Shown: positions 1-52,900 of the stretch, piece after piece
How the letters are laid out: every line of letters starts with the position of its first letter
Position numbering within the stretch: the stretch's first letter is position 1
NCBI GenBank assembly: GCA_044345055.1
Contig: JBIJBT010000001.1
Coordinates: 1,956-65,955 of the forward strand
DNA length: 64,000 nucleotides
DNA from: Bdellovibrionota bacterium
GTDB lineage: Bacteria; Bdellovibrionota_C; UBA2361; OMIW01
Reading direction: 5' to 3'
Notes under the pieces: generated by a model
What the model was told of the DNA's origin: nothing
The model's input: only the letters and a program-made list of their open reading frames with translations
Database searches by the model: none
Made by a program: the position numbers and the translations under genes

Positions 1-1125
1 TCTAGACCAAGCCTTTAGCGGTTGAAATGATTGTATACCAACCTCTCTAGATCGAGACCGATCAATCTCAAACTGATTGCTAAATAGAGCAGTAGTATTT
101 GGATCAAATACTACTACATCCGTTTCTAGGTCGTGCAAAAAACTGCGATGATTAAGATTGCTCGATCCGAGCATCACCCAGTCATCAATAATAATGCTTT
201 TAGCGTGCAAAATTGAGGGAAGATACTCGAATATCTGAACACCCGATTCAATCAGCTCTTGTTGAAGGGTGGAGGTGACCCAAGGAATAAAGAAAACGTC
301 AGAGATAGCCGGTAAAATAATTTGAACATCACACCCACGCTTAGCTGCCCGCTTGAGCGCAGTAAGTAATCTGTTTTGCGGTACAAAATAGGCATTGGTA
401 ATCCAAATCCGACATTTTGCACCATTTATGTCAGATAAAAGTCTAATCAAATTTCTCTTCCGGGCAGAGCGAGTTAGGTTGTGCCTAATTGAACCATTCG
501 GCGGACCTGGCAGCGAACCATTCCGTTTAAATCTGCGAAGCAACCGATGAGAGTTCCACACATAATCAAAGTGCTCAGCAAGAATACTGACTCCCGGTCC
601 GTGAAGCTGTATTGAAGAATCTCGCCATGTGTACGAGCCCATGACTGATTCAGCGTGAACAGCTGATATATTTCTGCTTCCAACAAGGGATATTGTTCTA
701 TCAAAGATTGCGATTTTTCGGTGATTTCGACGATTTAGTATCTGAATCCACGATAAAAAACCACGAAGTTTCTCCTGAATACGTGGCCTATTCATCAAAA
801 AGGATTCAAACCATAAGTGATGATAGACTCGATATTCGATGCCACTTTTTTGAGCGTCGACTCCAAAGTAGGATGGCCACCATACTGACCCGAATCCATC
901 CACTATAATGCGAACTTTGACTCCCCGCTGTTTGGCAGCAGCTAGTTCAGCAAATATTTGGCGACCAACTACATCATCCTCGAATATATAAAAATCGATA
1001 TCTATTGAGAGCTGAGCTGCTCTACACATCTCCGCGAATCGTTCGAAAAATAGATCGCCCGAGAATATCGGTTCTGCATATTCCCAAGGATAAGGGGCGT
1101 GGGCTCCGTCACGGGTAGGCTTCAT
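1..1125 (-). CDS. Phospholipase D family protein / cardiolipin synthase-like, two HKD domains. 3' end runs off the window start, so it is absent from the ORF track (no stop codon in window).
   Basis: Manual reverse-strand translation gives one uninterrupted frame from ATG (complement of 1123-1125) to position 1. First HKD motif HRKIAIFD...GSRNI. Second motif LHAKSIIIDDWVMLGSSNLNHRSFLHDLE. No N-terminal TM helices, so ClsB-like and cytosolic. Start ATG overlaps the stop of the upstream ECF sigma gene (ATGA). Confidence 0.8.
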   Translation of the reverse strand, partial: MKPTRDGAHAPYPWEYAEPIFSGDLFFERFAEMCRAAQLSIDIDFYIFEDDVVGRQIFAELAAAKQRGVKVRIIVDGFGSVWWPSYFGVDAQKSGIEYRVYHHLWFESFLMNRPRIQEKLRGFLSWIQILNRRNHRKIAIFDRTISLVGSRNISAVHAESVMGSYTWRDSSIQLHGPGVSILAEHFDYVWNSHRLLRRFKRNGSLPGPPNGSIRHNLTRSARKRNLIRLLSDINGAKCRIWITNAYFVPQNRLLTALKRAAKRGCDVQIILPAISDVFFIPWVTSTLQQELIESGVQIFEYLPSILHAKSIIIDDWVMLGSSNLNHRSFLHDLETDVVVFDPNTTALFSNQFEIDRSRSREVGIQSFQPLKAWSR

Positions 1126-1787
1126 GCGGCAATCTTCCACCACTGAGGTCCGTAAAGAAGAGCTGATTCATCGAGTTGGTCGCGAAAATGATCTTTCAGG
1201 GTGCGCTTGAGAAGTGTTCGCGCCTGATGAAGGCGGGACTTGACTGTATCCTCCGATATGTTGAGAGCGTGGGCTACGGCGCTCGTTGAGAAGGCACAAC
1301 ACAATCTCAAGATACATACGGCGGAATAGTCAGGTGGAAGAGCATTGATTGCTGATTCGATCGCGAGTCTCAGCTCCGCTACTGAACCAACTCGCTGAAG
1401 GTGACTTGTCAATCCTGAAGGAAGGGAGAGCTGTGCTTGAGTGACTGCATATTCTAATCGATGACGGCGGCGACGTTCTCTCAATCTCATTAGTGCAGTA
1501 TTTGCGGCAATCCGATTGAGCCAACTTCCTAGCGAAGAGCGCCCATGAAACGACTGTATCTTTAGGCAGGCAGCAAGAAAAGCCTCTTGAGTAACCTCTT
1601 TAGCATCTTCTGGCTCTCGGCAGTAATACAGCGCGGTTCTGTATACCGGTGGATACCACCGCCGTATCATTTCCTCGAATGCATCGCGGTCGCCCGCCCT
1701 GAGCCGTGCCAAAAACAGATCCGATCCCTCGATTGCCGGTGCATCGTGGTTTTCTTCAGAAACATAATCATTTACCATGATGGTCAC
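1122..1787 (-). CDS. ECF-type RNA polymerase sigma-70 family factor
   Basis: 221 aa. Region 2 signature FEEMIRRWYPPVYRTALYYCREPEDAKEVTQEAFLAAC. Region 4 helix-turn-helix near the C-terminus (ISEDTVKSRLHQARTLLK). Confidence 0.85.
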   Translation of the reverse strand: MTIMVNDYVSEENHDAPAIEGSDLFLARLRAGDRDAFEEMIRRWYPPVYRTALYYCREPEDAKEVTQEAFLAACLKIQSFHGRSSLGSWLNRIAANTALMRLRERRRRHRLEYAVTQAQLSLPSGLTSHLQRVGSVAELRLAIESAINALPPDYSAVCILRLCCAFSTSAVAHALNISEDTVKSRLHQARTLLKRTLKDHFRDQLDESALLYGPQWWKIAA

Positions 1788-1957
1788 CCATTATGATACG
1801 ACCGCGTTGCTACTGAGGCACTCCTTGTTAAAAACAGTTTATCTCTCGTTTCTCAATTGCGCACGGGTCAGTCTTGAAATGATAGTGGGATTTGGAACAA
1901 ATATTCGATTTGCACGGTCTATCGAATCAGTCGGAATTTAGAGAGGAAAAATCAGAT

Positions 1958-2245
1958 ATGAAGAGAACTGTTTTGTGCACAAAGTTTCAAGCTGAGAAAC
2001 AAGGGTTGGATAATCCGCCATTCAAAGGCCCAATCGGGCAGTTGATTTATGATCGAGTATCGCAGGAGGCGTGGGCTCAGTGGCGCGATGATATGCAGAT
2101 AAAAGTTCTTAACGAGTATCGACTCAACATGGGAGATCCGAACGATTACGCGGTTCTTGTAAAGCAGATGTGTCTTTTCCTAGGGCTCGAAGAGGGGCAG
2201 GGGGTCTCGGTGGGGGATGAAGAGAAGGGGAGAAGTGGTCAATGA
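1958..2245 (+). CDS. yggX: Fe(2+)-trafficking protein YggX family. The ORF-track start at 1892 is probably too far upstream; the internal ATG at 1958 has a GAGAGGAAAA RBS.
   Basis: MKRTVLCTKFQAEKQGLDNPPFKGPIGQLIYDRVSQEAWAQWRDDMQIKVLNEYRLNM matches the YggX pattern (MSRTIFC...G..GK.IY..IS.EAW.QW...Q..LINE..LNM). Its stop overlaps the proC start (ATGA). Confidence 0.8.
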   Translation: MKRTVLCTKFQAEKQGLDNPPFKGPIGQLIYDRVSQEAWAQWRDDMQIKVLNEYRLNMGDPNDYAVLVKQMCLFLGLEEGQGVSVGDEEKGRSGQ

Positions 2246-3087
2246 AACGTTCGATCGTGCTCATAGGGGGAGGTAATCTTGGTCTTGCTATCGCGCGAGG
2301 TCTCCAAGAGGATCCCCCTCCGTTCATGGAAGAGCTAATCATTGTCGAACGTAATAGTGAGCGGCAAAAAGTAATTGCTGACTCTGTTGAGGCGCGGGTC
2401 GTAGCTGATATACCGACCGTATCATCGACCGCGCTGTTTCTTCTTGCGGTAAAACCAGTAGATGTTGCACCGCTCTCCTTTGAGCTGCGTGGAAAGATTA
2501 CCGATCGGAATCTGGTTGTTTCGTGTGCCGCTGGGCTCACCCTTGATCTACTCTCAAATCTGCTCGGAGGACATTCTTTAGTTTCCCGAGTTATGCCCAA
2601 TCTTGCTGCATCAAATCGGCAATCGATCTCTGCGGTGGTATCCTCGTCTTGCATAACAGCGCAAGACAGGAGAGTAGTAGAGGAGCTATTTTCCCGAATC
2701 GGTGCTGTGATAGAGCTTCCGAACGAGGATATGATGCATGGAGTCACGGCACTTAGTGGTAGTGGCCCGGGCTACCTAGCTTGGATAGCTGATGCTATGG
2801 AACAAACAGCAGCCGATTTGGGTATTCCCGGAGAGATCGCCCGATTGCTGGTTGCTCACTCATTCTCCGGTCTTGGGTCTCTTCTGATATCCGGGGAGAG
2901 CACTGCACAGCAAATTTGTGAGCAGGTTTCATCTCCAAACGGAACAACAATCGCTGCGATTCGGGAGTTGTCGTCTGGACAGGTGCATGAATCGGTTCAA
3001 CGGGCGATTATGAAAGCAGCTGATAGATCGAGAGAACTATCAGCAGAAGCTTCTTGCCATCAAGTATCGGCGAAGCAAGCTGTGTAG
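2242..3087 (+). CDS. proC: Pyrroline-5-carboxylate reductase
   Basis: N-terminal Rossmann motif LIGGGNLG. C-terminal dimerisation motifs SGSGPGY and SPNGTTIAAI, typical of P5CR. Confidence 0.85.
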   Translation: MKRSIVLIGGGNLGLAIARGLQEDPPPFMEELIIVERNSERQKVIADSVEARVVADIPTVSSTALFLLAVKPVDVAPLSFELRGKITDRNLVVSCAAGLTLDLLSNLLGGHSLVSRVMPNLAASNRQSISAVVSSSCITAQDRRVVEELFSRIGAVIELPNEDMMHGVTALSGSGPGYLAWIADAMEQTAADLGIPGEIARLLVAHSFSGLGSLLISGESTAQQICEQVSSPNGTTIAAIRELSSGQVHESVQRAIMKAADRSRELSAEASCHQVSAKQAV

Positions 3088-3278
3088 CGATTTTTAGTAG
3101 ACCTTCAGTCGGCACTATCACACTTTGTCTACTACTTGTACACTGTTTTTTTCGGTGTTAAAGCTGTTTATAGAACGCCTTTTAGCTTAAATTTTTAAAT
3201 TCCCTTAAGCCTCTCATAAGAGCATCTTTCTTTTCATATTTAAGAGTTTATCTAGTTTTTTATTTCGTGTTGACCTCG

Positions 3279-3349
3279 CTTAGTAATCAAAAGGTGTCAA
3301 CTACTTGTAGGTCAGACTAAAGATTCCGAGCAGGTTGACCGACAACCTG
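3279..3349. promoter_or_regulatory. Cluster of GTTGAC(C) half-sites and a perfect hairpin in the 432-nt non-coding region upstream of fliS
   Basis: GTTGACC at 3279-3285, its inverse GTCAAC at 3296-3301, and GTTGACC again at 3334-3340 inside the perfect inverted repeat CAGGTTG-ACCGA-CAACCTG (3331-3349). Candidate operator array; function unknown. Confidence 0.3.
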
Positions 3350-3519
3350 TAGGCACTCAGAGGAAGCCGTAATAATCGGGGATAGCTGAGTCGTTAATTA
3401 ATCCCGCCGCATCGGATTTTAGCGATTGGGTCGGGAGAGGCTACCAGAAAAATTGTATTCGTTAGCCAAGGGTCGTGGCGTATAAGGCAGAGTAATTTTA
3501 GATCGGTAGGAGCAGCTGC

Positions 3520-4005
3520 ATGTACGGGAAGAATGCGTTATCAACGTATAAATCGGTTCAGGTAACAACAACTGACCGAGGCCGACTTCTTGTTATGTTG
3601 TATGAGGGAGCAATTACCTTTTTCAAACAGGCGATTCAGGGTCTTGAAGAGAAAGATATCGGAAAGTTTTGCCGCTATCTTAGCAAGGGACAGGCGATCA
3701 TCGCTGAGCTTATGAACACTCTGGACGCTGAGAAAGGGGGAGCAATAGCAGGCGACCTCGAGCGGCTATATGAATTTATTCTTTTCTACTCTACAGAAGC
3801 TAACCTGCATCGTGACGGTACACGTCTCCAAAAGTGTATCGATCTGATTACTCCCGTTTACGTCGCATTTAAAGAGGTGGTCGATAGTGGTCTCGATCCT
3901 AGCTCTTCTGCGCCTTCTGCACCTCAGAATACGGCTCCAGCGCGGCCGACCGATGGTGGAACAGCAGTTCCTCAACCAGGTGGAACATTTCGAATGAAAA
4001 CGTAA
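3520..4005 (+). CDS. fliS: Flagellar export chaperone FliS, with a ~35-aa Pro/Ser/Ala-rich C-terminal extension. Isolated: no other flagellar genes in the window.
   Basis: MYGKNALSTYKSVQVTTTDRGRLLVMLYEGAITFF...LSKGQAIIAELMNTLDAEKGGAIAGDLERLYEFILFYSTEANLHRD aligns with the FliS consensus (Y..Y....V.T..P..L..ML..G...F...A...E.D.......L.KA..II.EL...LD.EKGG.I...L..LY.....L..AN...D). Confidence 0.8.
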   Translation: MYGKNALSTYKSVQVTTTDRGRLLVMLYEGAITFFKQAIQGLEEKDIGKFCRYLSKGQAIIAELMNTLDAEKGGAIAGDLERLYEFILFYSTEANLHRDGTRLQKCIDLITPVYVAFKEVVDSGLDPSSSAPSAPQNTAPARPTDGGTAVPQPGGTFRMKT

Positions 4006-4040
4006 GGGCTATAAAGAGCTTTTACTAACCCTTTAAATCT

Positions 4041-5003
4041 CTATTTCAATACTTTTTGAACACCGCTCGTCACTGCAACCGCAATTGCGCCAGTGATTAT
4101 TCCGACGATACTTATAAGGCATATCTCGATCACTGCGTGAGCTAATGAAGCCCCACCAGCAATAAGTGCGGTTGAGCCCTCGATAAAATGATGAAGAGGG
4201 CTAATACCGTGAGCGATGATTCCACCACCTACTGAAAACATCGCGAGGGTACCGACCACTGATAAAGCTCTCATGGCTCGCGGAGTCGCCCTTACTATAC
4301 CGATTCCAAGCTTTCTGCGGAGAGGCCCGAGGCGATGAGTGGAGGCGCTCTCGATAAGATAAAGACCAAGGTCATCAGCTTTTACGATCGCCGCCACCAG
4401 TCCATACACTACTACGGTCATGCCCAACCCAATGATAATGAGTGTAGCTGCTTTCGTAAAAAATGGCGCTGATGCGGCAGCGCCGAGTGTTATCGCAATT
4501 ATCTCTGCAGATAGAATAAAATCGGTCCTGATTGCACTCTTGATTTTTTCCTGCTCAACATTGTCGGAGGATTGAAGCTGTGCGTCGTTCGGGGTCGTTT
4601 CGTTCGTTGGTGAAGATTTCTCAGATTCGCCTGATTGCGTCGATGACATCGAGCTGTGAAGAATTTTTTCTACCCCTTCGTAGCACAAAAATGCACCACC
4701 AATCATGAGGAGTGGAGTAATCAGGAACGGTGCAACCGCGCTTATGAGCAGTGCAAGAGGAACAAGGATCGCCTTGTTCCGAAGTGAGCCTTTTGCCACT
4801 GCGTATACGACCGACAACTCACGATGAGCCTCAACATTGATGAGCTGCTTTGCGTTGAGCGCAAGATCATCTCCGACGATCGCCGAGGTTTTCCCAGCAG
4901 CAATCTTTGTCATCGAAGCGATGTCATCGAGAAGGTAACTTACATCATCAAGCAGTGCTAAAAATCCACCGATTGGCATAGTGGTAGCTCCTTTTTGGTC
5001 CAT
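4041..5003 (-). CDS. DUF808 family inner-membrane protein (YedI-like)
   Basis: N-terminus IGGFLALLDDVSYLLDDIASMTKIAAGKTSAIVGDDLALNAKQ...RELSVVYAVAKGSLRNKAILVP matches the YedI/DUF808 N-terminus. Followed by multiple TM segments. Confidence 0.7.
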   Translation of the reverse strand: MDQKGATTMPIGGFLALLDDVSYLLDDIASMTKIAAGKTSAIVGDDLALNAKQLINVEAHRELSVVYAVAKGSLRNKAILVPLALLISAVAPFLITPLLMIGGAFLCYEGVEKILHSSMSSTQSGESEKSSPTNETTPNDAQLQSSDNVEQEKIKSAIRTDFILSAEIIAITLGAAASAPFFTKAATLIIIGLGMTVVVYGLVAAIVKADDLGLYLIESASTHRLGPLRRKLGIGIVRATPRAMRALSVVGTLAMFSVGGGIIAHGISPLHHFIEGSTALIAGGASLAHAVIEICLISIVGIITGAIAVAVTSGVQKVLK

Positions 5004-5024
5004 TTTTAGGCGATATTTGCTTTT

Positions 5025-5972
5025 TTACTCAGATTGGCCGCTTTCAGAGCATCTTCTTTCTGCGACTACACGCTCGAGAGCAAGAGTCGGTGAACCGAGA
5101 GATTGCTTGAGAGATCGAAACTCATCCTGGGCAGATTTAAGATAGCTACCAACTCGAACTGCCGTGATAAGACGGTTCTTTGGAGTGTGCTCGGATGGAA
5201 TAAATTCAGTCGCGGTCGTTTGATAACCATGACCTCTCAAGAATAGGATTCTCAACATATCGGTAAAATGAGCCCCCATTTCGCGACGAATGTGCGCTGT
5301 TTGAAAGATCGGGCGCAAAGGATTGTCGCTACACTCCTCCGTATTTTCCTTCCACCATTGAGCAAGCTCTGCCTGACAACAGGGTGCTATCGCAATTAGG
5401 TCCGATTTAAGCGATAGAGCAAGGGCGCACGCCTCATCACTTGCAGTATCACAGGCATGTAATCCAAAGACAGCGTGTGGTCTTCGAGGAGTATCATTAG
5501 TGGATTTTGGCGGCGGCCACTGAAAAGAGCTGATCGATTCGTTGTGAAACGAAAGCGAGGAAAAACCAAGGTCCTCGGCTGTTTGGGTGCATCCAGAGAT
5601 GATAGCGGGGCGTTGATCTATTCCGTGGATCTCTGCGGGATGTTTAAGAACCTCCTCAAAGTACCAAGCCAAAAGAAAGGTGAGATAGGATTTCCCGCAT
5701 CCAGCGTCTATCATGACCACCGGCGAAAATCGGTTTGCAAGATCCTGGAGATGAGGTTTTAAGAGGCTCATTAGGTGATTAATCTGCAAAAACTTTCGTA
5801 GACTTTGATGATTCATACTTGAGTCTTTGTTCAAAAGACCCAACCGAAAGAGAAGAACTGGCGCATTGACAGGGGTTATTGTGAGCCGTTTATCCCCAAA
5901 TGACTGAAGAAGTCTCTGCGGAGTCCAATAACGGTGTGTTTGGGAAATGAACTGATCTGGTATTGGTTTCAT
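5025..5972 (-). CDS. Class I SAM-dependent methyltransferase (Methyltransf_32-like)
   Basis: Glycine-rich SAM motif VVMIDAGCGKSYLT. Downstream motifs HGID and VFGLHACDTASD. Confidence 0.6.
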   Translation of the reverse strand: MKPIPDQFISQTHRYWTPQRLLQSFGDKRLTITPVNAPVLLFRLGLLNKDSSMNHQSLRKFLQINHLMSLLKPHLQDLANRFSPVVMIDAGCGKSYLTFLLAWYFEEVLKHPAEIHGIDQRPAIISGCTQTAEDLGFSSLSFHNESISSFQWPPPKSTNDTPRRPHAVFGLHACDTASDEACALALSLKSDLIAIAPCCQAELAQWWKENTEECSDNPLRPIFQTAHIRREMGAHFTDMLRILFLRGHGYQTTATEFIPSEHTPKNRLITAVRVGSYLKSAQDEFRSLKQSLGSPTLALERVVAERRCSESGQSE

Positions 5973-6046
5973 GGTAAATGCTGCGGGACAAACGTTCTTC
6001 TAGGTCCCAAAAATAGTGATCCCTGAAAAATACATCGATGGATTTT

Positions 6047-7006
6047 TCAGGGCCAACTAAATAAGGTAGCTGCCGTCTCAAGAATTAGTGTTTCAGGATA
6101 GCTGGGCAGCAGCGGGGAGCCGATAAAACCAACGTGCCCTCCCCATTGACTTAGTTCAAGATCAACCCAGTGATTATGGCGACACTCCTTTTCGGGAAAA
6201 GAAGCGTTGGAAAAAAAAGGGTCGTCAAGAGCAGAAATCATCCGACATTTTACCCTGATTAGCTCAATAAAGCGACAGCAACTATTTTCCTGCCAATATT
6301 CCTCGGCGGATGAATACCCAAAAAGTGGTGCTGTAAAGCGCGAATCATAGTCATAAAAGGTTGAAATTGATGAGAAATCGGCAAACGACGGCGAGGCAAT
6401 ACCACTAGCGACCTTGAGGCGGTGTTTCCGATGAAAGGCAGAAATAAAATAGCGCTGGTAAATCGGATTTTGAGCTATCGAGGCGGCCGTCGCTGAGAGA
6501 TTTCCGGGTGTTGAGATAGCGATTGCGGCGGCTACAACGCGGCTGGCAGATGAGCCCTCTTCACCGAGATATTTAAGGGCGATATTCCCTCCAATACTAA
6601 ATCCAACTAGTAGGACAGGTTCATCTTGTAAAGATAAATAGCTGCGAAGATCGTCGGTAAATCCCGAATGGTAGGCCCGCGCAACTCTATTGATCGTAGT
6701 GCCGCATCCGCGAAGGCAAATTACCTCAACCGAGAAGCTATCGATGCGTGTTAAAAGCCGGATGAGGCTTCTTAAATATCCGCTTTGGAGAGATCCCTCG
6801 AGCCCATGCAATATTACGATTCGTCCAAGAGGTCGGGCCGAGGGGGACCAGGTTGCAACCTCAAAAAAATCGTCGCCACTTCCTTCGTGGCGGGTGATGG
6901 AGGGGGGCGGAATTGAAAGCCGCCGGCCAGCAAGACCACCCCAAAATGTCTGTAGGTGAGGATTCTTCAGGTAGAAGGGAGGGGAGAAGGTGGAGGAGAT
7001 TATCAT
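6047..7006 (-). CDS. Alpha/beta-fold hydrolase, YheT/ABHD-type
   Basis: N-terminal FYLKNPHLQTFWGGL is the YheT signature. Nucleophile elbow GFSIGGN. HG motif (ILHGLEGS). Confidence 0.7.
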   Translation of the reverse strand: MIISSTFSPPFYLKNPHLQTFWGGLAGRRLSIPPPSITRHEGSGDDFFEVATWSPSARPLGRIVILHGLEGSLQSGYLRSLIRLLTRIDSFSVEVICLRGCGTTINRVARAYHSGFTDDLRSYLSLQDEPVLLVGFSIGGNIALKYLGEEGSSASRVVAAAIAISTPGNLSATAASIAQNPIYQRYFISAFHRKHRLKVASGIASPSFADFSSISTFYDYDSRFTAPLFGYSSAEEYWQENSCCRFIELIRVKCRMISALDDPFFSNASFPEKECRHNHWVDLELSQWGGHVGFIGSPLLPSYPETLILETAATLFSWP

Positions 7007-7165
7007 TAGAGATTTCGCAGCCTCTTAGAAAATCGAATCTATGCGCCGTAAAAAGGCATCTTCAATCTGGGGGGCAGTTTTATATAGCTGTCTCTAAAAT
7101 GACCTTGGGGTAACTACTAACGGACTCATGAGGTTACATCCGGTAAAGCAAGATTCTACCTAATT

Positions 7166-8995
7166 TTGATGGTTCATCCCCGTATGTCACGATTTTTTGA
7201 ACCAAATCTGAGAGCTCTTGCTGAAAAGTTTCCGTCAGTTGCAAATCAGCTCGAGGCTAGGAGTGCACTAGTTTCTGGTTTACAAGCTGAGGAAACCAGC
7301 GAAGGCCCGATAGTTGTTATCGATGGCCGACCGCTCGACCACCCCAAATTGCCCCGTCAAGCTGCGCAGCAGTGGGCGGTTCGATCGTGTGCACCCTTGC
7401 GTTCACGCGATGCGCCGATAATCGTTTTTGGCTTTGGCGGAGGTTATCATCTAGAGGCGCTCCCTGACGAGGGGTGCAGTGATGTCTCGGTCTATGAGCC
7501 GAGCATTGCTGTATTGAGAATTGCCCTTGAGATGCGTGACCTAAGGGGGCTAATTCAAACTCTCTCCTCTTTATCCGTCGGCGAGCTTCCGCGAGAAATC
7601 CCTCATGATGCCGTTCTGATGACCCGCTCACTCTCACAGGCGGTGTTCCCCAGTGAGTGGGAGGAGCTTAGACGGGTTGTTTACGCAGCGCGGGGTGCGG
7701 AGAGCTTAAAGCCGACCGTTGCTGTACTTGGGCCGCTGCAAGGGGGAACTCTTCCGATTTTACCGTACGTACATCACGCTCTCGTAAAGCTTGGTCTTCG
7801 AGCCCGACCCATTGATGTCAGCCCGATGGCGGCGGGATATCACCAGGTAAGCGCTCTAATTCGAGATCCGTTTCGCCAAAAAATGGCAGAGAGTGGTTAC
7901 GTCGACTATATCTCAAATCTTGCTGTTGAAAGTATTCAAGATCGCCCAGTCGATATATGTATCTGTCTTGCGCAGGCACCAATTACCCTCAAAGCACTAC
8001 AGCAGCTCCGATCGATGGGTGTCGTGACGGTTCTATGGTTTGTAGAGGATTTCAGGCGATTCTCATATTGGCGCCCCTTTGCTCCCTATTTTGATTTTAT
8101 ATTCACCATTCAAAAGGAGCCGTGTATCTCCGCAATGAAAGAGGCAGGAGCTGCACAGGTACATTATCTTCCCGTAGGATGCGATCCTGCCGTCCATGCG
8201 CCGTGTGTTTTGTCACCAGAGGATCGGGCTCGGTGGGGTAGCCCAGTATCGTTTGTTGGTGCAGGCTATCATAATCGACAACAAGTATTTGCTGCGCTGT
8301 CTCATTTGCCCCTAAAAATATGGGGAACAGAGTGGCCTCATGGAAAGCCATTTAATCGCTTGGTACAGGAGGGAGGAAGGCGACTTACTCCCGCTGAATA
8401 CACCAAGATTTTTAATTCAACGACAATAAATCTAAACCTTCATTCATCTTCAGAGAGAGATGGTGTCGATCCATTCGGAGATTTCGTTAATCCACGAACG
8501 TTCGAACTAGCCGCAACGGGAGCGTTTCAGCTTGTTGATCAACGCTCGCTACTTTCCGAACTCTTCACTCCAGGAAAGGAGGTAGTTACCTTTAAATCGG
8601 TCGCCGAGCTAAAGGATTTAATACCGTACTTTTTAGAAAATCCTGATCAAATGTCTAACTTCGTGAATCTGGCTCGTCAAAGAGCAGTTACCGAGCACAC
8701 CTACGAGCAACGTATTCGGTCGATGTTAGGTACTATTTACGGCGTTAAATACGACCATCTCGCTGAGCGTCGTCGAAATCATCCATGGACTCAGCTGCTT
8801 GAACGGGGAAAAACGTATCCGGCGCTTAGCGAGCGATTAGAGCGGGCTCATAAAAGAGGTGATGATCCATCGCTCGACTCTCTTGTAGCTGAGATAGGAG
8901 TCGGAAAGGGAAAGCTAAACGATTTGGATCAGGAGATCCTTTTTCTCCATCATGTAAAACAAAATATGATCCTAAAAAAACCTGGTGAGGCGTAA
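7166..8995 (+). CDS. Two-domain putative glycosyltransferase: N-terminal DUF115/MptE-like domain of the motility-accessory-factor (Maf) type, fused to a C-terminal CgeB-like glycosyltransferase domain (Glyco_trans_1_2-like)
   Basis: N-terminus SRFFEPNLRALAEKFPSVANQL and glycine motif APIIVFGFGGGYHLEAL are typical of Maf/DUF115 proteins. The C-terminal 250 aa (VSFVGAGYHNRQQVF...INLNLHSS...NPRTFELAATGAFQLVDQ...VVTFKSVAELKDLIPYFLENPDQMSNFVNLARQRAVTEHTYEQRI) matches CgeB-type glycosyltransferases. Its stop is 3 nt before the next gene. Confidence 0.6.
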   Translation: MMVHPRMSRFFEPNLRALAEKFPSVANQLEARSALVSGLQAEETSEGPIVVIDGRPLDHPKLPRQAAQQWAVRSCAPLRSRDAPIIVFGFGGGYHLEALPDEGCSDVSVYEPSIAVLRIALEMRDLRGLIQTLSSLSVGELPREIPHDAVLMTRSLSQAVFPSEWEELRRVVYAARGAESLKPTVAVLGPLQGGTLPILPYVHHALVKLGLRARPIDVSPMAAGYHQVSALIRDPFRQKMAESGYVDYISNLAVESIQDRPVDICICLAQAPITLKALQQLRSMGVVTVLWFVEDFRRFSYWRPFAPYFDFIFTIQKEPCISAMKEAGAAQVHYLPVGCDPAVHAPCVLSPEDRARWGSPVSFVGAGYHNRQQVFAALSHLPLKIWGTEWPHGKPFNRLVQEGGRRLTPAEYTKIFNSTTINLNLHSSSERDGVDPFGDFVNPRTFELAATGAFQLVDQRSLLSELFTPGKEVVTFKSVAELKDLIPYFLENPDQMSNFVNLARQRAVTEHTYEQRIRSMLGTIYGVKYDHLAERRRNHPWTQLLERGKTYPALSERLERAHKRGDDPSLDSLVAEIGVGKGKLNDLDQEILFLHHVKQNMILKKPGEA

Positions 8996-8998
8996 CAA

Positions 8999-10666
8999 AT
9001 GAGACGTCGATATCCTGAAAAATCAAATGTGCTTCTCGTGAACATTACTCGACTGGGCGATATGCTCCAGGCGACTCCAACAATTGCGGGTATTAAGCGC
9101 GAAAATCCAGGATGTAAAATTACAGTTGTTGTCGAAAAACAATTTCAGGAGGTATGTAGGTGGATTCCTGATATTGATGAGGTCATATCTCTTGATTTGA
9201 CGTATGTGGTTAAGTGTCTCCACAGAGATGGAGAGGGAGTTGTTGAGGCCTATCGCTATTTCCACGAAATTATAGAGGATCTTCGGAGCCGTAAATTCGA
9301 TTACTCACTCAATATGGCCTCATCCGCCTACACTGCGCTCATTCTTTCACTCGTTGGCACGCCGAGGATGGGAGGTTGGACGGCGGATGAAGAGGGACAT
9401 CGTCGGATAGAATCCGATTGGGCTCGCCTCTTTGCAAGCTCAGTATTTCACCAGAATCGACATTACACGGCGCTGAATCTCGTTGATGTATTTCGATTGA
9501 GCGCCGATGTGATAGACCACCCACATAACCTAGTGCTCCGGGTATCCGATGAGGCAAGAAAGAGCGCGGCTGCTCTTGTCGAAGAGTTCGCTTTCACGAA
9601 TAAAGGCCCTCTTATAGCGATTCAGGTAGGTGCAAGTCAGGCAAAGCGGCAATGGCGAACCGAAAAATTTGTGTCACTAATTCAGAAGTTGCTTGATGAC
9701 ACAGGAGCGCGAATTGTTCTAACGGGGACTAAAGCGGAGTTGGGAATAATTGACCCGATTGTAGCAGCGGTTGATTCGCCTAATGTCGCGGTTGCTGCGG
9801 GAAGAACGAGCATCCCTGAGCTCGCAGCGCTTCTTGAGATGAGTGATATTTTGATCACCGGTGATACCGGAACGATGCATATTTCGGTTGCAGTAGGAAC
9901 GCCCGTTATCTCGATGTTCCTCGCATCTGCTCTCGGGTATGAAACAGGACCCTACGCAGAGGATAGTATCGTCATTCAACCTTTCATCGGATGCGGTCCG
10001 TGTCATCCGGGTAAGCCGTGCAGCACTATAGAGTGTCACGATCTGATTCCACCCTCTGTAATTAGCGAGCTTACGCGATTGCGATTGCTTGGTCCGATCG
10101 ACTCAATCCCACGCGAATTGAGCGAACCAGCCTCATATCGGATATTTCGGACAACTTTTGATGAACACGGTGTTTGGGATCTCGTTTCTCTTGATCCTTT
10201 TGACCTAGATCCTGCATCTCCATATCGAGAGGCTTATCGCCGCCTGTGGTTGGAGGACCTGGGTGGACTTAAAACAGGCCGTCGTTCGAGACCTTCTCGG
10301 CGAGCCCTACGCACCATCGATGGTACGTTCTCGTCTAGCGGAGAGCTTGAGGAGCTGCGATTATGTGCTCTTAAGGGTTTGTCGCTTCTCGATGAGCTGA
10401 CTCTAGCTGTGAACGATCTCTTCGGGGATCCGGAGCGTCTAACTGAGGTAGCAGATAAGTTAGAGGGAGTTGACCAAGAAATAGAGCGGCTTGGATATCA
10501 CCATTCCTATTTGGGATTGCTAGTTCGGATGTTTGTTTTTTCGAAGGAAAATTTGCAGGGATCTGAGATAGTCGATCTCTCTGTTCAGATGCGTTCGGTG
10601 TATGAAGATCTGATTCGGCGCTCCGAGCTTTTGGGCGGCTTTATTGTTGATGAGTTAAGGGGATAA
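8999..10666 (+). CDS. Glycosyltransferase family 9 (ADP-heptose heptosyltransferase-like) with a ~190-aa C-terminal extension of unknown function
   Basis: GT9 N-terminus NVLLVNITRLGDMLQATPTIAGIKRENPGCKITVVVEK. Donor-binding region ILITGDTGTMHISVAVGTPVISMF. Cys4 cluster CGPCHPGKPCSTIEC. WaaC/WaaF enzymes are ~320-350 aa; this one is 555 aa. Confidence 0.75.
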   Translation: MRRRYPEKSNVLLVNITRLGDMLQATPTIAGIKRENPGCKITVVVEKQFQEVCRWIPDIDEVISLDLTYVVKCLHRDGEGVVEAYRYFHEIIEDLRSRKFDYSLNMASSAYTALILSLVGTPRMGGWTADEEGHRRIESDWARLFASSVFHQNRHYTALNLVDVFRLSADVIDHPHNLVLRVSDEARKSAAALVEEFAFTNKGPLIAIQVGASQAKRQWRTEKFVSLIQKLLDDTGARIVLTGTKAELGIIDPIVAAVDSPNVAVAAGRTSIPELAALLEMSDILITGDTGTMHISVAVGTPVISMFLASALGYETGPYAEDSIVIQPFIGCGPCHPGKPCSTIECHDLIPPSVISELTRLRLLGPIDSIPRELSEPASYRIFRTTFDEHGVWDLVSLDPFDLDPASPYREAYRRLWLEDLGGLKTGRRSRPSRRALRTIDGTFSSSGELEELRLCALKGLSLLDELTLAVNDLFGDPERLTEVADKLEGVDQEIERLGYHHSYLGLLVRMFVFSKENLQGSEIVDLSVQMRSVYEDLIRRSELLGGFIVDELRG

Positions 10667-10670
10667 GACG

Positions 10671-11279
10671 ATGGTATCAGTGCGTATCGATGGTGAGCAT
10701 AGTTCGATAAACGGAGAGCATTTACCCCGTCTTATTGATCTAGTTGAGGTGATTAAGGACTGTATCGTCCCTGGTCACATGATTACGGGATTATTAATTG
10801 ATGGCCGCGTTTTAGCTGATCAAGACTGGGATCTTGCACCACGCCATTTTGGAAATGTAACTCTTGATGTATCGACAGGTTCCCCAGCTCGTTACATTTA
10901 CGACAAAATGTCCACCGCCCCAGAGGTGATCGATAACTGCTTCTTAGTGTTTCGGGAGACCCGAAAAGCATTTGTCGAGGGAAGCAGTCAGTCCGGTAAT
11001 GATCTTTTGCGTGCGGCTGTAGCTAATATGCAGGCTTTTGTTGGATGGTATCGATCAATGTTGGAGTTAATGCCCGACGACCAAAAGCGCAGATTTTGCA
11101 TCGATGATGAGATTACGGCGATGATCGGGACTCTCGAGCGAATATGCATGCAGCAGCTCACTCAGTCATGGAAAGCCACTGGCGATACAATCGGAACTGT
11201 TCTCGAGCCGCAGCTCGACACGCTTCATACTAGACTTCGTCTTATTGTTGCCAAAGAACCGGTGGTGACGGTTCCATAG
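10671..11279 (+). CDS. Hypothetical protein, translationally coupled to the preceding GT9 gene (4-nt gap)
   Basis: 202-aa ORF with no recognisable motif. Same strand and tightly packed with 7166-10666. Confidence 0.45.
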   Translation: MVSVRIDGEHSSINGEHLPRLIDLVEVIKDCIVPGHMITGLLIDGRVLADQDWDLAPRHFGNVTLDVSTGSPARYIYDKMSTAPEVIDNCFLVFRETRKAFVEGSSQSGNDLLRAAVANMQAFVGWYRSMLELMPDDQKRRFCIDDEITAMIGTLERICMQQLTQSWKATGDTIGTVLEPQLDTLHTRLRLIVAKEPVVTVP

Positions 11280-11523
11280 TTGAAAAACCGCACTTCCTGA
11301 AGGTCTTCCTTGAGCGGTCTTCTGAAAGACTAGAGCCTTGTAATAGAACGCATATTGATTCCTGTTAGTGCTATTTAGCTTGGGTGGGGGTTGTGCGGTC
11401 TCCCCATTTTGCCTGAAAATGTAGGTGATTTGAGCCTGTCGCTGGTGACCTTAAGGTTTGATACCTCGGGGTAATTTATCAGAGAGGCTTTGGATCTTGT
11501 TCTGATTTGATGGAGGAATTGCG

Positions 11524-11874
11524 ATGCGATGCGAGATAAAACTAGGAAAGAATCTGAGTTCAGATCCTGTTCGTGAGCACTTTGCGAAGCAGCTCAAGGA
11601 ACTGTCCCCCCGCTTTGATCGGATCGTTCGTCACCTCATCATATCCGCCAAAGATATTAATGGCCCACGGGGTGGTCTCGATAAGGAGTGCATCATTTTT
11701 GCCTATTTAAACTCCGGTAAATCGGTCCGAATTTCCGCTCGGTCCTCGGATCTTTATCAAGCCGTTGACCTCGTTGTTGAAAAGGCAAAAGTACGCTTGG
11801 CGTCCCTGAAGGTCTATGCGATATCCCAACGTAGACCAGTCCTTCGTAATCAGGGACCTGAGCAGTTTGCCTAA
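11524..11874 (+). CDS. hpf: Ribosome hibernation promoting factor / RaiA (YfiA) family, short form
   Basis: Aligns along its length with E. coli HPF: FAKQLKELSPRFDRIVRHLIISAK...ECIIFAYLNSGKSVRISARSSDLYQAVDLVVEKAKVRLASLK vs FAKLEQYFDRINQVYVVLKVEK...[38 protein letters not shown]. Confidence 0.8.
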   Translation: MRCEIKLGKNLSSDPVREHFAKQLKELSPRFDRIVRHLIISAKDINGPRGGLDKECIIFAYLNSGKSVRISARSSDLYQAVDLVVEKAKVRLASLKVYAISQRRPVLRNQGPEQFA

Positions 11875-11940
11875 AGTCTTGGCAACGACAATTGCGGTTT
11901 TTAGCGTAATTGCAATTGGGAGGTAGTGGGGTAGCAGTAT

Positions 11941-12120
11941 TACTCCCTTCCTCACTCCCTCCCAAAGTACCCATCCTCCTTCCTTCTGTCCCCTCCTTGT
12001 TAGCCCCCCCAGATCTCCTCATTCGGCGTTGCTGCGCCGCTCCGATAATGTTATCCTCCCGCCCAACTTCGCACCCGCACGGGTTTGGTCTCTGACTTCT
12101 CCTTTTTTGGAGGCCGAGAC
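11941..12120 (+). repeat. ~180-nt polypyrimidine (C/T >80%) tract in the hpf-rpsB intergenic region / rpsB 5' leader, with repeated CCTCC/TCCTT units
   Basis: Read directly: tactcccttcctcactccctcccaaagtacccatcctccttccttctgtcccctccttgttagcccccccagatctcctc... Immediately preceded by a purine-rich GGGAGGTAGTGGGGTAG segment that can pair with it. Responsible for the artefactual ORFs 11910-12095 (+) and 11693-12022 (-). Confidence 0.6.
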
Positions 12121-12227
12121 TTAAGCTCAGTCTTAGTCGTTTCGCACCGTTGCCATCGTTAGAGGCTCGGGTAAGGAATGTCGACGCGGGGAGGATTAAC
12201 TAAGACAACAAATAGAAAAGGATTGTT

Positions 12228-13154
12228 ATGTCTGAAACAACTACAAATGCTGAATCGTCGGCTGCTGGAGAAGCTTCTGGGGCGCAGGTCGCCTTTGCTC
12301 AGGCTCTCGAAGCAATGCAAACAACCTCCACACCAGTTAGTGTCCGCTCACTCATCGAGGTAGGGGCTCACTTTGGACACCAAACTGAGCGGTGGAACCC
12401 GAAGATGATGAAATACATCTTCGGAGAAAAAAACGGCGTACATATCATCAACCTTGATAAGACGATTGAGGCGTGGACTCGAGCAAGCAAGTTCATCTTC
12501 GAAACGGTTGCACGTGGGGGAAATATCCTTTTCGTGGGAACAAAGGTGCAGGCCCGAGAACCGGTTAAAGAAGAAGCTGCTCGATGCGGGGGGCACCACG
12601 TTACTTCGCGATGGCTCGGAGGAACTCTCACCAATTTTCAAACTATCAGAAATTCGCTGAACCGCATGAGCAAGCTTGAGGAGCTTCTCGCTGCGGCTGA
12701 AAATCCAAATTCCGACGTTAAGCTACGCAAAAAAGAGCGTTTGACGATATCCCGCCAGCTCGAAAAACTCGAAGCTAACCTCGGCGGTATTCGTTCGATG
12801 AAGAGCGCACCGGAAGTGATGTTTGTGATCGATCTCAACAAAGAAGACATCGCGATTCGCGAAGCACAGCGGCTCAACATTCCGGTCGTTGCTCTAACTG
12901 ACACAAACGTGGATCCAGGGACAATCGCGTTCCCGATACCAGCAAACGATGACTCTTCCCGGACCCTCCGATTGTTCCTATCCGCAATTGCAGATGTCGT
13001 TATTCATGCCCGTAAGGTTCATCAATCCCGCAGCGGCCGAGGTGATGAATCGCAAGGCGGACGAGGTCGCTCCGGTCGGGGTGGCGCAGGTTCTGCCGGT
13101 CAGAGCAACGAGCAATCGAAAGAGAGCTCTGACGCAAGCCAAACCCAGCCTTAA
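12228..13154 (+). CDS. rpsB: 30S ribosomal protein S2, with Arg/Gly/Ser-rich C-terminal tail
   Basis: VSVRSLIEVGAHFGHQTERWNPKMMKYIFGEKNGVHIINLDKT...VGTK...TNFQTIRNSL, the canonical S2 core. Confidence 0.95.
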   Translation: MSETTTNAESSAAGEASGAQVAFAQALEAMQTTSTPVSVRSLIEVGAHFGHQTERWNPKMMKYIFGEKNGVHIINLDKTIEAWTRASKFIFETVARGGNILFVGTKVQAREPVKEEAARCGGHHVTSRWLGGTLTNFQTIRNSLNRMSKLEELLAAAENPNSDVKLRKKERLTISRQLEKLEANLGGIRSMKSAPEVMFVIDLNKEDIAIREAQRLNIPVVALTDTNVDPGTIAFPIPANDDSSRTLRLFLSAIADVVIHARKVHQSRSGRGDESQGGRGRSGRGGAGSAGQSNEQSKESSDASQTQP

Positions 13155-13198
13155 GGGTTTAAGTCCGACCCTAAGTCTCGCTATCGATTGTTTAGGCA

Positions 13199-13233
13199 AT
13201 GTAGGTGGTACCTAGTGTGGGCCCATCTACATT
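13199..13233 (+). terminator. Inverted repeat (AATGTAG...CTACATT, 7-bp arms) followed by a T-rich run in the rpsB-tsf spacer; possible attenuator
   Basis: aatgtaggtggtacctagtgtgggcccatctacatt then ccgataaatatttta. Partial termination between rpsB and tsf is known in E. coli. Confidence 0.25.
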
Positions 13234-13318
13234 CCGATAAATATTTTAGAGGCGCACGTTTAGGGCTAAGAAATTCCAGAACAGACGTTCAGGGTTCAAA
13301 CGTTAAAGGATAAAGAAG

Positions 13319-13975
13319 ATGAGCGAAGTAACAGCATCGATGGTAAAGGATCTCCGGGAAATGACCGGAGCGGGGATGATGGATTGTAAAAAAGCGCTCG
13401 CCGAAGCAAATGGTTCGCTCGAGGCGGCGGTTGAGGTTCTCCGAAAGAAGGGGCTCAAGGATATCGGTAAACGAGCGGGCCGTACGGCAGCAGAGGGAAC
13501 CGTTGGTACCTACGTTCATGCAAACGATCAGATCGTTGCCCTTGTTGAACTAAATTGCGAGACCGATTTCGTAGCCCGTGGCGATGATTTTAAAGAGTGC
13601 GCTCGCGGAATCGCGATGCACGTTGCCGCAATGAAGCCGCTCTACCTCTCGAGCGAAGAGGTACCTAGCGCAGTTATCGAGAAAGAAAAAGAGATCTTCC
13701 TCGAACAGCTATCCGACGCTCAGAGAGCGAATGCCGAAAAAATTCTCCCTGGTAAGTTGGCGAAGTTCTTTGAAGAGAGCTGTCTCCTTGAACAACCTTA
13801 CGTTAAGGATGATTCAGGTAAGAAAGCGGTCAAGCATATCGTTGAGGAGCTCAGCATCAAGTGTGGTGAAAAGGTGACTGTGCGACGGTTTGTTCGATTC
13901 GAAGTGGGCGAGGGGATCGAAAAGCAGAAGGCTGACCTAGCGAGTGATGTTGCTGCTCTAACAGAGGGGGCGTAA
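13319..13975 (+). CDS. tsf: Elongation factor Ts (short form, ~218 aa)
   Basis: [45 protein letters not shown]-like N-terminus. [17 protein letters not shown] core motif. Confidence 0.95.
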
Positions 13976-13979
13976 CACC

Positions 13980-14723
13980 GTGGCAGTAGAACAGACAACG
14001 ACCTATCGCAGGATTCTTCTCAAGCTGAGTGGTGAGATCTTAGCTGGAGATAAGGGCTTTGGTATAGACCCGAGCGTAATCGGCCGTCTTGCAGACGAGG
14101 TCGTGTCTGTTCATGGAATGGGTGTAGAGATTGGACTTGTCATCGGGGGTGGAAATATCTTTCGAGGAGTCCAGGCAGGAGCTCAGGGGCTTGATAGAGC
14201 CTCGGGCGACTACATGGGGATGTTGGCGACATCGATAAACGCACTTGCGATTCAGGATATCCTTGAGCAGAGGGGAGTCCCGACGCGGGTATTATCAGCG
14301 ATAGAGATGAGGGAGATCGCTGAACCATATATTCGTCGGCGTGCACTGCGTCATCTTGAGAAAGGGCGAGTCGTCATATTTGCCTGTGGAATAGGAAATC
14401 CCTATTTTACAACAGATACTGCCGCCAGCTTGCGAGCACTTGAGATTGGTGCTGAAGTGCTGCTAAAAGGGACAAAGGTTGATGGAGTTTACGACCGTGA
14501 TCCCAAAAAGGATCCATCAGCGACCCGCTATGAAGAGGTCTCTTTTATGGAGGCACTGCAGAAGGGGCTCAAGGTGATGGATGCAGCGGCTATTTCGCTC
14601 TGCATGGATAACGACCTACCAATAGTGGTGTTTGACATCGGGGTCGAGGGAAATCTTAATCGCTTAGTTCGTGGTGAGCGCATCGGTTCGATGGTACGGG
14701 GACCGAAGGGGAGCACTGCATGA
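13980..14723 (+). CDS. pyrH: UMP kinase (GTG start)
   Basis: [11 protein letters not shown]...[12 protein letters not shown]...[16 protein letters not shown]...[25 protein letters not shown], canonical PyrH. Confidence 0.95.
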
Positions 14724-14729
14724 GTAGAA

Positions 14730-15302
14730 ATGCATGAGTTGAACTGTATGAGTGGAATTGCAAAAGAGCTTGAATCACAAGGGAAGGCAACAGTAGAGCA
14801 TTTTCGGAAGGAGCTTCAGAAGGCGCGGACTGGTCGTGCCCAATCGAGCCTTCTTGATGCTATACACGTTGATTATTACGGATCTAGTGTGCCTCTTATT
14901 CAGCTTGGATTAATTAATACTCCAGAGCCGAGAGTTATCACTGTTCAGGTATATGATGCGGCTGCGGTTGAAGCGGTCGATAAGGCTATCCGGCAGGCGA
15001 ATATCGGATTGAATCCTCAAAGAGAGGGTTCGCTCCTTCGAATGAATATTCCAGCGCTAACAGAGGAGCGTCGCAAGGAGATCATAAAGGGTCTTCATAA
15101 GTTGGCGGAGGAGTCGCGGGTGGGGATACGCTCTCACCGTCGCGAGGCGATTGATGGGATTAAGAAGCGGGAGAAGGCTAAGGAGTTCTCCGAAGATGAG
15201 GTTCGTCGGCTTCAGGATGAGATACAGAAAGTCACCGACAAACAGATAGCTGAGATTGATACGTTGCTTTCGGCGAAGGAGCGAGAGCTTACTGAGGGGT
15301 AA
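14730..15302 (+). CDS. frr: Ribosome recycling factor
   Basis: KARTGRAQSSLLDAIHVDYYGSSVPLIQLGLINTPEPRVITVQVYD...LNPQREGSLLRMNIPALTEERRKEIIK. Confidence 0.9.
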   Translation: MHELNCMSGIAKELESQGKATVEHFRKELQKARTGRAQSSLLDAIHVDYYGSSVPLIQLGLINTPEPRVITVQVYDAAAVEAVDKAIRQANIGLNPQREGSLLRMNIPALTEERRKEIIKGLHKLAEESRVGIRSHRREAIDGIKKREKAKEFSEDEVRRLQDEIQKVTDKQIAEIDTLLSAKERELTEG

Positions 15303-15326
15303 TGCGCAGCCGATAGAGGCTCGCTC

Positions 15327-28617: not shown

Positions 28618-28865
28618 CGTTTCGCCTCAGCCATGAAAAATCGCCACAGTGGAAGTGGCCCGATTCCGACATCGTATCGCTGAAATAGTTGTGGATGAAT
28701 TGTTTCGTCGAGGAGCGCTCGCCACTCTTGCTCGGGGCGCGGAAACTCACCACGATCAGCTTTTGCGAGGAAATGGGCAACTTTCTGCTTTACGGCGGGA
28801 CACTGCCACAACGCATAAGGAACTGGATTTTCCAAAAGCTGCTCACGAGGGAACTTTAACGCCAT
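28614..28865 (-). CDS. Small hypothetical protein (83 aa), translationally coupled on both sides within the glycosylation operon
   Basis: ORF overlaps the upstream gene by 10 nt and the downstream gene by 4 nt. Not hydrophobic, so not a GtrA-type flippase. Confidence 0.4.
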   Translation of the reverse strand: MALKFPREQLLENPVPYALWQCPAVKQKVAHFLAKADRGEFPRPEQEWRALLDETIHPQLFQRYDVGIGPLPLWRFFMAEAKR

Positions 28866-38345: not shown

Positions 38346-38382
38346 TCATGCGTACATTTCTGATGCAGGTAGGGAGCAGAAT

Positions 38383-39411: not shown

Positions 39412-39463
39412 GCTTCGGATAATTTGCGATAATTCTCATTATAACGCTCAACCTTTACAAATT

Positions 39464-52873: not shown

Positions 52874-52900
52874 CGCTGTCTAGTCGGAATTATGCTAGTT

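Follow-up and report, generated by a model that had tools for sequence, protein, structure and literature searches.

Two families of glycosyltransferases dedicated to flagellin, Maf and FlmG, have been described, and the way in which they select flagellin is only now being worked out. In Maf proteins a MAF_flag10 core is flanked by a Rossmann-like domain at the N-terminus and a helical domain at the C-terminus (PMC11339370). A TPR domain binds flagellin in FlmG of Caulobacter and Brevundimonas (PMC7591256) and also in Maf-1, and Maf-2 requires GlfM, a cis-encoded four-helix bundle of 89 amino acids (aa) (both bioRxiv 10.1101/2023.12.03.569772). The locus considered here shares features with each of these systems and lies in a stretch of 64,000 nucleotides (nt) from a Bdellovibrionota bacterium (assembly GCA_044345055.1, contig JBIJBT010000001.1, positions 1,956 to 65,955), which is referred to below as the window. 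It consists of fliS and of three further genes (the trio), which encode a CgeB-like glycosyltransferase of 609 aa, a 555-aa enzyme of glycosyltransferase family 9 (GT9) and a protein of 202 aa (P202). The reading favored here, at a probability of roughly 60%, is that the trio would constitute a cytoplasmic protein O-glycosylation system that most likely acts on flagellin, before the latter is passed on by FliS to the export apparatus. The genes and their parts are as follows.

3520-4005, plus strand: fliS, encoding the flagellin export chaperone, 161 aa (PF02561, TIGR00208)
7166-8995, plus strand: CgeB-like glycosyltransferase, whole gene, 609 aa from a TTG start
7166-7711, plus strand: N-terminal Rossmann-like accessory domain of the CgeB-like enzyme, Maf-N-like, aa 1-182
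7715-8701, plus strand: GT-B catalytic domain of the CgeB-like enzyme (DUF3880 and Glyco_trans_1_2), aa ~184-512
8702-8995, plus strand: C-terminal alpha-helical domain of the CgeB-like enzyme, aa 513-609
8999-10666, plus strand: GT9 enzyme, whole gene, 555 aa
8999-10084, plus strand: GT9 core, a heptosyltransferase-like GT-B fold, aa 1-362 (PF01075)
9992-10036, plus strand: four-cysteine (Cys4) cluster CxxCx5Cx4C at the end of the GT9 core, Cys332, 335, 341 and 346
10085-10666, plus strand: C-terminal extension of the GT9 enzyme, an uncharacterised domain, aa 363-555
10671-11279, plus strand: P202, with an alpha/beta domain (aa 1-70) and a four-helix bundle (aa 72-195)

The genes and the translational packing of the trio had been reported in a preliminary description of the locus, and both were borne out. 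Only 3 nt separate the CgeB-like gene from the GT9 gene and 4 nt the latter from P202, and Shine-Dalgarno-like sequences (GGTGAGG and AAGGGGA) precede the GT9 and P202 starts within the 3' ends of the preceding genes. A scan of 3000-12300 for promoters and terminators returned fewer sites than in shuffled sequence, and none that looked meaningful between the trio genes. On this layout, the trio (7166-11279) is predicted to be an operon. Public gene calls for the first enzyme use ATG starts that give 608 or 603 aa. Identical proteins are present on many metagenome contigs, up to 118 kb in length, where the four products are annotated as FliS, "spore maturation protein CgeB", "ADP-heptose:LPS heptosyltransferase" and "hypothetical protein".

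The strongest evidence for a link to flagellin comes from gene order. A scan of species-representative genomes yielded 80 loci, onto all of which the window proteins were mapped. About 75 of the 80 belong to uncultured Bdellovibrionota, some of them labelled Deltaproteobacteria, Oligoflexia or Dadabacteria, and a few distant relatives belong to Nitrospirota and Thermodesulfobacteriota. Across the ~75 species-level loci the standard order is fliS, CgeB-like glycosyltransferase, GT9 and P202. When ingroup loci with enough sequence are counted, the GT9 gene follows that of the first enzyme in all 62 (median gap across relatives 3 bp, with 75 of 77 gaps at or below 50 bp), P202 follows GT9 in 61 of 62 (median gap 25 bp), and 49 of 61 have fliS upstream in the same orientation (median gap 257 bp, mostly 100-400 bp). 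A flagellin gene takes the upstream place of fliS in loci L055 and L080, and L084 (37% identity) shows the arrangement fliC-fliD-fliS-CgeB-like glycosyltransferase-GT9, with a fliC product of 298 aa and with fliF 7 kb further. Flagellin genes also lie no more than 10 kb from the module in L042 and L073, as does fliF in L071. The trio thus stands beside late flagellar genes, as Maf does. The preliminary description had proposed, from the window alone, a candidate protein-glycosylation module near fliS with flagellin as one possible substrate; the conserved fliS linkage, which lay beyond its view, strongly supports a module tied to flagellin, even though two of its own arguments, from a DUF115 domain and from the Cys4 cluster, fail (see below).

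The flagellins that adjoin the module in L055 (4289-6211, minus strand) and L080 (6391-8247, minus strand) are 620-640 aa long and carry a central variable region of 6-7 FG-GAP repeats (PF13517), while their Flagellin_N and Flagellin_C domains on either side are normal. When the literature was searched for flagellin together with FG-GAP, nothing was returned with either term in title or abstract.

The identity of FliS in the window is secure, with scores of 109.3 bits against PF02561 (1.6e-31; cut-off 26.7) and 74.8 bits against TIGR00208 (cut-off 53.75). Its four-helix core (aa 1-123) is followed by a Pro/Ser-rich tail (aa 124-161, nt 3889-4002), and it is, as had been said, the sole flagellar gene among the window open reading frames with Pfam matches; several other reading frames have no match at all.

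The first enzyme of the trio has the three-part layout of Maf proteins such as 5MU5 of Magnetospirillum magneticum and Maf-1 and Maf-2 of Shewanella. Its AlphaFold model (predicted local distance difference test, pLDDT, 89.5) contains a Rossmann-like domain (aa 1-182), a GT-B fold (aa ~184-512) and a helical region (aa 513-600). The N-terminal part matches no more than 50 of the 228 positions of PF20157, the Maf N-terminal accessory domain (E 1.8e-7 with the whole protein and 5.7e-9 with the fragment alone), and the helical C-terminal domain (aa 513-609), which has no Pfam match, again resembles the non-catalytic part of Maf (5mu5). The middle of the protein is another matter. It matches PF13524 (Glyco_trans_1_2; 5.7e-34) and PF12996 (DUF3880; 3.6e-11), which together form a GT-B fold of the type found in glycosyltransferase family 4 (GT4) and make this domain a member of the CgeB family at high significance, as the preliminary description had proposed. 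A motif NPRTFE in this enzyme is presumed to be catalytic. That description had also assigned to the protein a Maf-type DUF115/MptE-like domain, and this assignment falls: PF01973 (MAF_flag10/DUF115/MptE) gave no match to the whole protein at E <= 0.01 or to its N-terminal fragment at E <= 1, and what is Maf-like is confined to the accessory domains that flank the GT-B core.

Since Maf, too, has a Rossmann-like N-terminal domain and a helical C-terminal domain, the 609-aa protein has the look of a Maf scaffold whose catalytic core is of another kind. It differs from Maf in further respects. Phmmer found no match between it and 5MU5, which is also absent among the 60 family-profile matches listed, and a GT9 enzyme invariably accompanies it, a partner that no described Maf system has. 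A PDB sequence search with the protein returned nothing significant, and a PDB search with the family profile returned, among the 60 matches listed, methyltransferases only, through a domain that is fused to the protein in relatives. The protein also differs from CgeB: the host is a Gram-negative member of the Bdellovibrionota with no spore context, and the protein carries the extra Maf-like N-terminal and helical C-terminal domains as well as, in most relatives, the fused S-adenosylmethionine (SAM) methyltransferase. A role for the N-terminal domain (aa 1-182) in binding the acceptor or a partner is proposed.

More than 2000 homologues of the 609-aa protein (clusters at 90% identity) were found at ~50% identity, most of them ~930 aa long with the SAM methyltransferase at the N-terminus. 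The methyltransferase is missing only in the window and in its nearest relatives, L008 and L009 (70% identity), and this lineage has lost the domain.

A comparison with FlmG brings out a second set of parallels. In domain layout, the 609-aa protein would combine a cytoplasmic GT-B domain with a separate, putative acceptor-binding module, a combination that acts on flagellin in FlmG. The three window proteins contain no TPR by Pfam, in contrast to FlmG, and have a Maf-N-like accessory domain instead. TPRs do appear in the relatives: directly downstream of P202, 29 loci encode a 1265-aa protein with two GT4 domains and two TPR blocks (e.g. L041:6214-10011). This protein was looked for in the window and is absent there, and it may be an optional fourth component. 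FlmG furthermore needs no partner, in contrast to the present system, in which two enzymes always occur together with a third protein. In one relative the module is adjoined by NeuB, a CMP-sugar synthetase-type gene, DegT and an epimerase.

The GT9 enzyme has the fold of the lipopolysaccharide (LPS) heptosyltransferases WaaC, WaaF and WaaQ. It matches PF01075 at 1.5e-27 over aa 90-335 and aligns with ordinary GT9 enzymes over aa 10-362; PDB matches over aa 11-362 include 3tov (2.6e-20) and WaaF 1psw (4.9e-12), and WaaC structures aligned too. In 22 aligned sequences the characteristic motifs are invariant or nearly so, namely D21 of the N-terminal GD motif (RLGD), GASxxK/RxW at 211-219 and DTGxxH at 289-294, including D289, T290, G291 and H294. 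As in E. coli HepI, the aspartate of the GD motif would be catalytic and DTGxxH would bind the donor.

This kinship raises the alternative that the product of the trio is an envelope glycan not attached to protein, for instance a variant LPS or lipooligosaccharide core, a capsule or a flagellar-sheath glycolipid, with the GT9 enzyme acting on a lipid-linked acceptor and the link to fliS being inherited or sheath-related. GT9 enzymes are classically LPS heptosyltransferases, and the best NCBIfam matches of this one are heptosyltransferase III, RfaQ and heptosyltransferase I. All of these LPS equivalog scores are nevertheless well below their cut-offs (TIGR02201, 109 against 170; TIGR02193, 96 against 185; TIGR02195, 85 against 135; PRK10422, 98 against 467). 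The enzyme also departs from the LPS enzymes in being encoded with fliS instead of LPS genes and in its C-terminal extension of ~190 aa, which the preliminary description had rightly singled out as a domain of unknown function. The extension has no Pfam match, yet it is conserved in all 75 neighbours, even at 27-37% identity, with the residues G391, Y413, D492, G499, F512, E517 and Y535 invariant. Furthermore, the window contains a separate and ordinary GT9 in a cluster of its own:

37614-40504, plus strand: LPS-core-type cluster with a Kdo/WaaP-like kinase, the second GT9 and an HldE-kinase-like PfkB protein
38152-39411, plus strand: second, ordinary GT9, a long open reading frame that overlaps the kinase gene (heptsyl_trn_I, 115 bits)
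39389-40504, plus strand: HldE-kinase-like PfkB protein (rfaE_dom_I, 323.6 bits, just under the cut-off of 345)

The two GT9 enzymes share 22% identity, and the GT9 of the module is probably a specialised paralogue rather than an ordinary LPS enzyme. The conserved trio lacks any flippase, polymerase, lipid-carrier or membrane protein as judged by family matches (no transmembrane prediction was run), and the Maf-like accessory domains of the first enzyme are likewise unexpected for an envelope glycan, which we consider an unlikely product of the trio. The second cluster bears in addition on the sugar donor: its gene content points to an organism with at least a partial ADP-heptose pathway, and with the HldE-like kinase and the ordinary GT9 in place ADP-heptose is probably available. 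The cluster is flanked by genes for an FHA-domain protein and a eukaryotic-type Ser/Thr protein kinase (36572-37552 and 42780-43769).

Known GT9-related enzymes that act on proteins are the autotransporter heptosyltransferases (BAHT; TIGR04414), represented by TibC and AAH, and the preliminary description had hinted at this subgroup. With them the module GT9 shares a proposed protein acceptor and four cysteines clustered towards the end of the C-lobe, about where the iron finger of TibC lies (Cys339/342/358/370; PMC4358343). It differs from them in several respects. The score against TIGR04414 is 15.1 bits (E 0.0085), far from the cut-off of 200; the cysteines are spaced Cx2Cx5Cx4C, unlike those of TibC; the extension of 190 aa has no TibC counterpart; alignment with ordinary GT9 enzymes from residue 10 would leave no room for the N-terminal beta-barrel domain of 97 aa that characterises the BAHT enzymes, along with their dodecameric ring; and no autotransporter is encoded nearby. 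The Cys4 cluster itself is real and presumably a structural metal site, and Cys332, 335, 341 and 346 are invariant in the 22 aligned sequences, which include the Nitrospirota and Thermodesulfobacteriota relatives. The cluster is not special to this enzyme, however, since the second GT9 of the window carries CxxCx4Cx6C at the equivalent place. It is therefore uninformative about the acceptor, gives no evidence for protein heptosylation, and was rejected as a marker of the BAHT type.

These comparisons bear on the further alternative that the trio glycosylates a protein other than flagellin, for example the hook, the FliD cap, hook-associated proteins, a pilin or a secreted adhesin as in the case of the autotransporter heptosyltransferases. 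The protein-directed features of the trio would fit such an acceptor as well as they fit flagellin, the TibC-like position of the cysteines points the same way, and it is conceivable in principle that chaperones of the FliS family and Maf-like domains act on other substrates as well. What makes this improbable is, first, that FliS is a flagellin-specific chaperone and its gene stays linked to the module; second, that flagellin itself neighbours the module in L055, L080 and L084; and third, that genes for autotransporters or adhesins do not recur among the neighbours of the module in the related loci. The BAHT score is low, and the ordinary GT9 of the window has a Cys4 cluster too.

The third protein of the trio, which had been described as of unknown function, indeed has no Pfam or NCBIfam match, and a PDB sequence search with it returned nothing significant. 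Its family comprises 155 representatives among 1.84 billion proteins. The model (pLDDT 92.7) contains an alpha/beta domain (aa 1-70) followed by an up-down four-helix bundle (aa 72-195; AF2 helices 83-195). In fold and position P202 resembles GlfM of the Maf-2 system: it is small and predicted to be soluble and non-enzymatic, contains a four-helix bundle, and is encoded next to a predicted glycosyltransferase in 61 of 62 loci, so that a small cis-encoded helical protein accompanies the enzymes as in the case of Maf-2. It differs from GlfM in its length (202 aa against 89 aa), in the additional N-terminal alpha/beta domain and in that the fold match is a generic one. By analogy, P202 is proposed to be a non-catalytic adaptor or specificity factor. 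In the distant relatives L082 (13285-13767), L085 (13303-13722) and L087 (3601-4041) a helical protein of 139-160 aa follows GT9; these proteins share ER.DW...ADL.EYEL.PLL, a motif like that at the C-terminus of P202, at a profile match that is not significant (E 0.07). Bundle-only relatives of P202, ~135 aa long, are present in a large protein library.

The accessory domains and P202 are conserved as strongly as the catalytic cores. A common origin of the accessory parts, or kinship with FliS, was considered and found no support: hhalign among the GT9 extension, P202 (whole, N-terminal and C-terminal parts), FliS and the N- and C-terminal domains of the CgeB-like enzyme gave a probability below 8% for every pair. 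FliS itself carries, throughout this clade, a C-terminal extension past the four-helix core, which in most species (loci L007-L083) ends in a conserved VGEAxRRVQISL. This motif could be a docking peptide. The tail of the window FliS, which the preliminary description had correctly noted as rich in Pro and Ser, diverges from it and ends in GGTFRMKT.

Such strong conservation outside the catalytic cores, together with the possible docking peptide, is also what would be expected if the three proteins were mainly flagellar regulators or assembly factors, with the transferase folds secondary and with P202 and the accessory domains titrating FliS or flagellin. There is precedent in GmaR of Listeria, which is both a glycosyltransferase and an anti-repressor. 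Motifs of the donor-binding and catalytic types, however, show no variation in either enzyme over the range of 27-70% identity, which argues that enzymatic activity has been retained, and Pfam searches detected no DNA-binding domain. A mainly regulatory role seems very remote on this evidence.

The preliminary description had also remarked on the isolation of fliS, some 3 kb upstream of the trio. This is true of the window, where three genes on the opposite strand (4041-7006) intervene:

4041-5003, minus strand: DUF808 membrane protein (Pfam)
5025-5972, minus strand: Methyltransf_32 protein (Pfam)
6047-7006, minus strand: alpha/beta hydrolase (Pfam)

Between fliS and the trio, the DUF808 and hydrolase genes are confined to the window and to L008 and L009, its closest relatives; the Methyltransf_32 gene is peculiar to the window. 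Because of this restricted distribution, the isolation of fliS is a derived state, and the intervening genes are read, from their distribution, as a lineage-specific insertion that is probably unrelated to the module. The Methyltransf_32 protein was considered as a stand-in for the lost methyltransferase domain, which finds no support, since it is absent from L008 and L009 and belongs to a different family.

The region of 430 bp upstream of fliS (3088-3519) contains no genes, has no Rfam match and shows no recognisable sigma-28 or sigma-54 promoter pattern; nor was a consistent match to such patterns found upstream of fliS in 54 loci. An Rfam search of 1-16000 returned a sub-threshold tmRNA fragment only. 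Between the trio and rpsB, a reading frame of 116 aa (11524-11874), conserved in L008 and L009 only, has a weak match to S30AE/HPF (ribosome-hibernation factor) below the NCBIfam cut-off. Elsewhere in the window, reading frames of 610, 427, 368, 310 and 256 aa (within 28856-31968 on the minus strand, 47208-48314 on the plus strand, and 51941-53671) have no Pfam match at E <= 1e-5. The right flank of the window contains cell-shape genes. A few kb past its left end, on the same contig, lies a chemotaxis cluster (L088:14653-20657) encoding CheB, CheR, a CheA-CheW fusion and a methyl-accepting chemotaxis protein, which is consistent with a motile organism.

Several observations weigh against flagellin as the acceptor, and some of them favor one or other of the alternatives set out above. 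It is the gene neighbourhood only that points to flagellin, and neither the window nor the ~9 kb inspected on each side yielded a flagellin gene. Within the clade, the housekeeping genes proC and yggX are as syntenic as fliS is, and they and an ECF (extracytoplasmic function) sigma gene are also syntenic with fliS, so that the linkage could partly reflect inherited gene order and not function, as the envelope-glycan alternative supposes. L084 speaks against this explanation, since there the two enzyme genes lie within a fliC-fliD-fliS cluster at which proC and yggX are not conserved. The median gap of 257 bp between fliS and the module suggests that the two are transcribed separately. In the Nitrospirota and Thermodesulfobacteriota loci, no match to flagellin, FliD, FliF or FliS was found in the inspected flanks; in the Nitrospirota locus L085 the Pfam-annotated flanks contain instead other glycosyltransferases (GT2 and GT4), as would suit an envelope glycan, along with a methyltransferase-TPR protein, a neighbour in outgroup loci that would suit another protein acceptor. 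Enzymes with PF13524 and DUF3880 also occur in the lipooligosaccharide outer-core loci of Acinetobacter (PMC10327509, PMC4172580), which shows that the fold is not protein-specific and again favors an envelope glycan. As for P202, its fold matches are generic, and a profile comparison with FliS detected no similarity. Finally, a literature search found no precedent for heptose on flagellin.

With these points taken into account, the glycosylation of flagellin still appears the most probable function of the trio, and it may be pictured as follows. The Maf-like N- and C-terminal accessory domains of the 609-aa enzyme would hold the acceptor or partner proteins, and the GT-B domain of GT4 type would take a sugar from a nucleotide-sugar donor and transfer it. 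The GT9 enzyme would then add a second sugar, probably heptose from ADP-heptose, with its conserved extension of 190 aa replacing the lipid A-core recognition of the LPS enzymes. P202 may serve as an adaptor or specificity factor, as GlfM does for Maf-2. In most relatives the fused SAM methyltransferase would in addition methylate the glycan or the protein, a step that the window lineage would have given up with the loss of the domain.

The two enzymes of the trio belong to known families (CgeB-like GT-B and GT9) and stand outside Maf, FlmG, BAHT and the LPS heptosyltransferases as these are defined. A literature search found no description of this architecture or of flagellin glycosylation in Bdellovibrionota, in agreement with the earlier remark that the layout is not that of a described flagellin-glycosylation island. 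A bolder proposal, which we offer tentatively and hold to be somewhat short of an even chance, is that the module represents a third architectural class beside Maf and FlmG: a Maf-type scaffold with a CgeB/GT4 core, an obligatory protein-directed GT9 that heptosylates flagellin, and a two-domain adaptor, distributed in uncultured Bdellovibrionota of mostly freshwater origin and with roots in Nitrospirota and Thermodesulfobacteriota.

If this is true, no GT9 other than the autotransporter heptosyltransferases would have been known before to act on a protein, and the action of this enzyme on flagellin would extend protein heptosylation past the autotransporter adhesins. Maf accessory domains with a swapped core would separate the recognition parts of Maf from the parts that carry out the chemistry. 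With three soluble proteins and flagellin as the only components, reconstitution in E. coli should be easy. The annotation of many Bdellovibrionota genomes, in which these proteins now figure as a spore maturation protein, an LPS heptosyltransferase and a hypothetical protein, would change accordingly.

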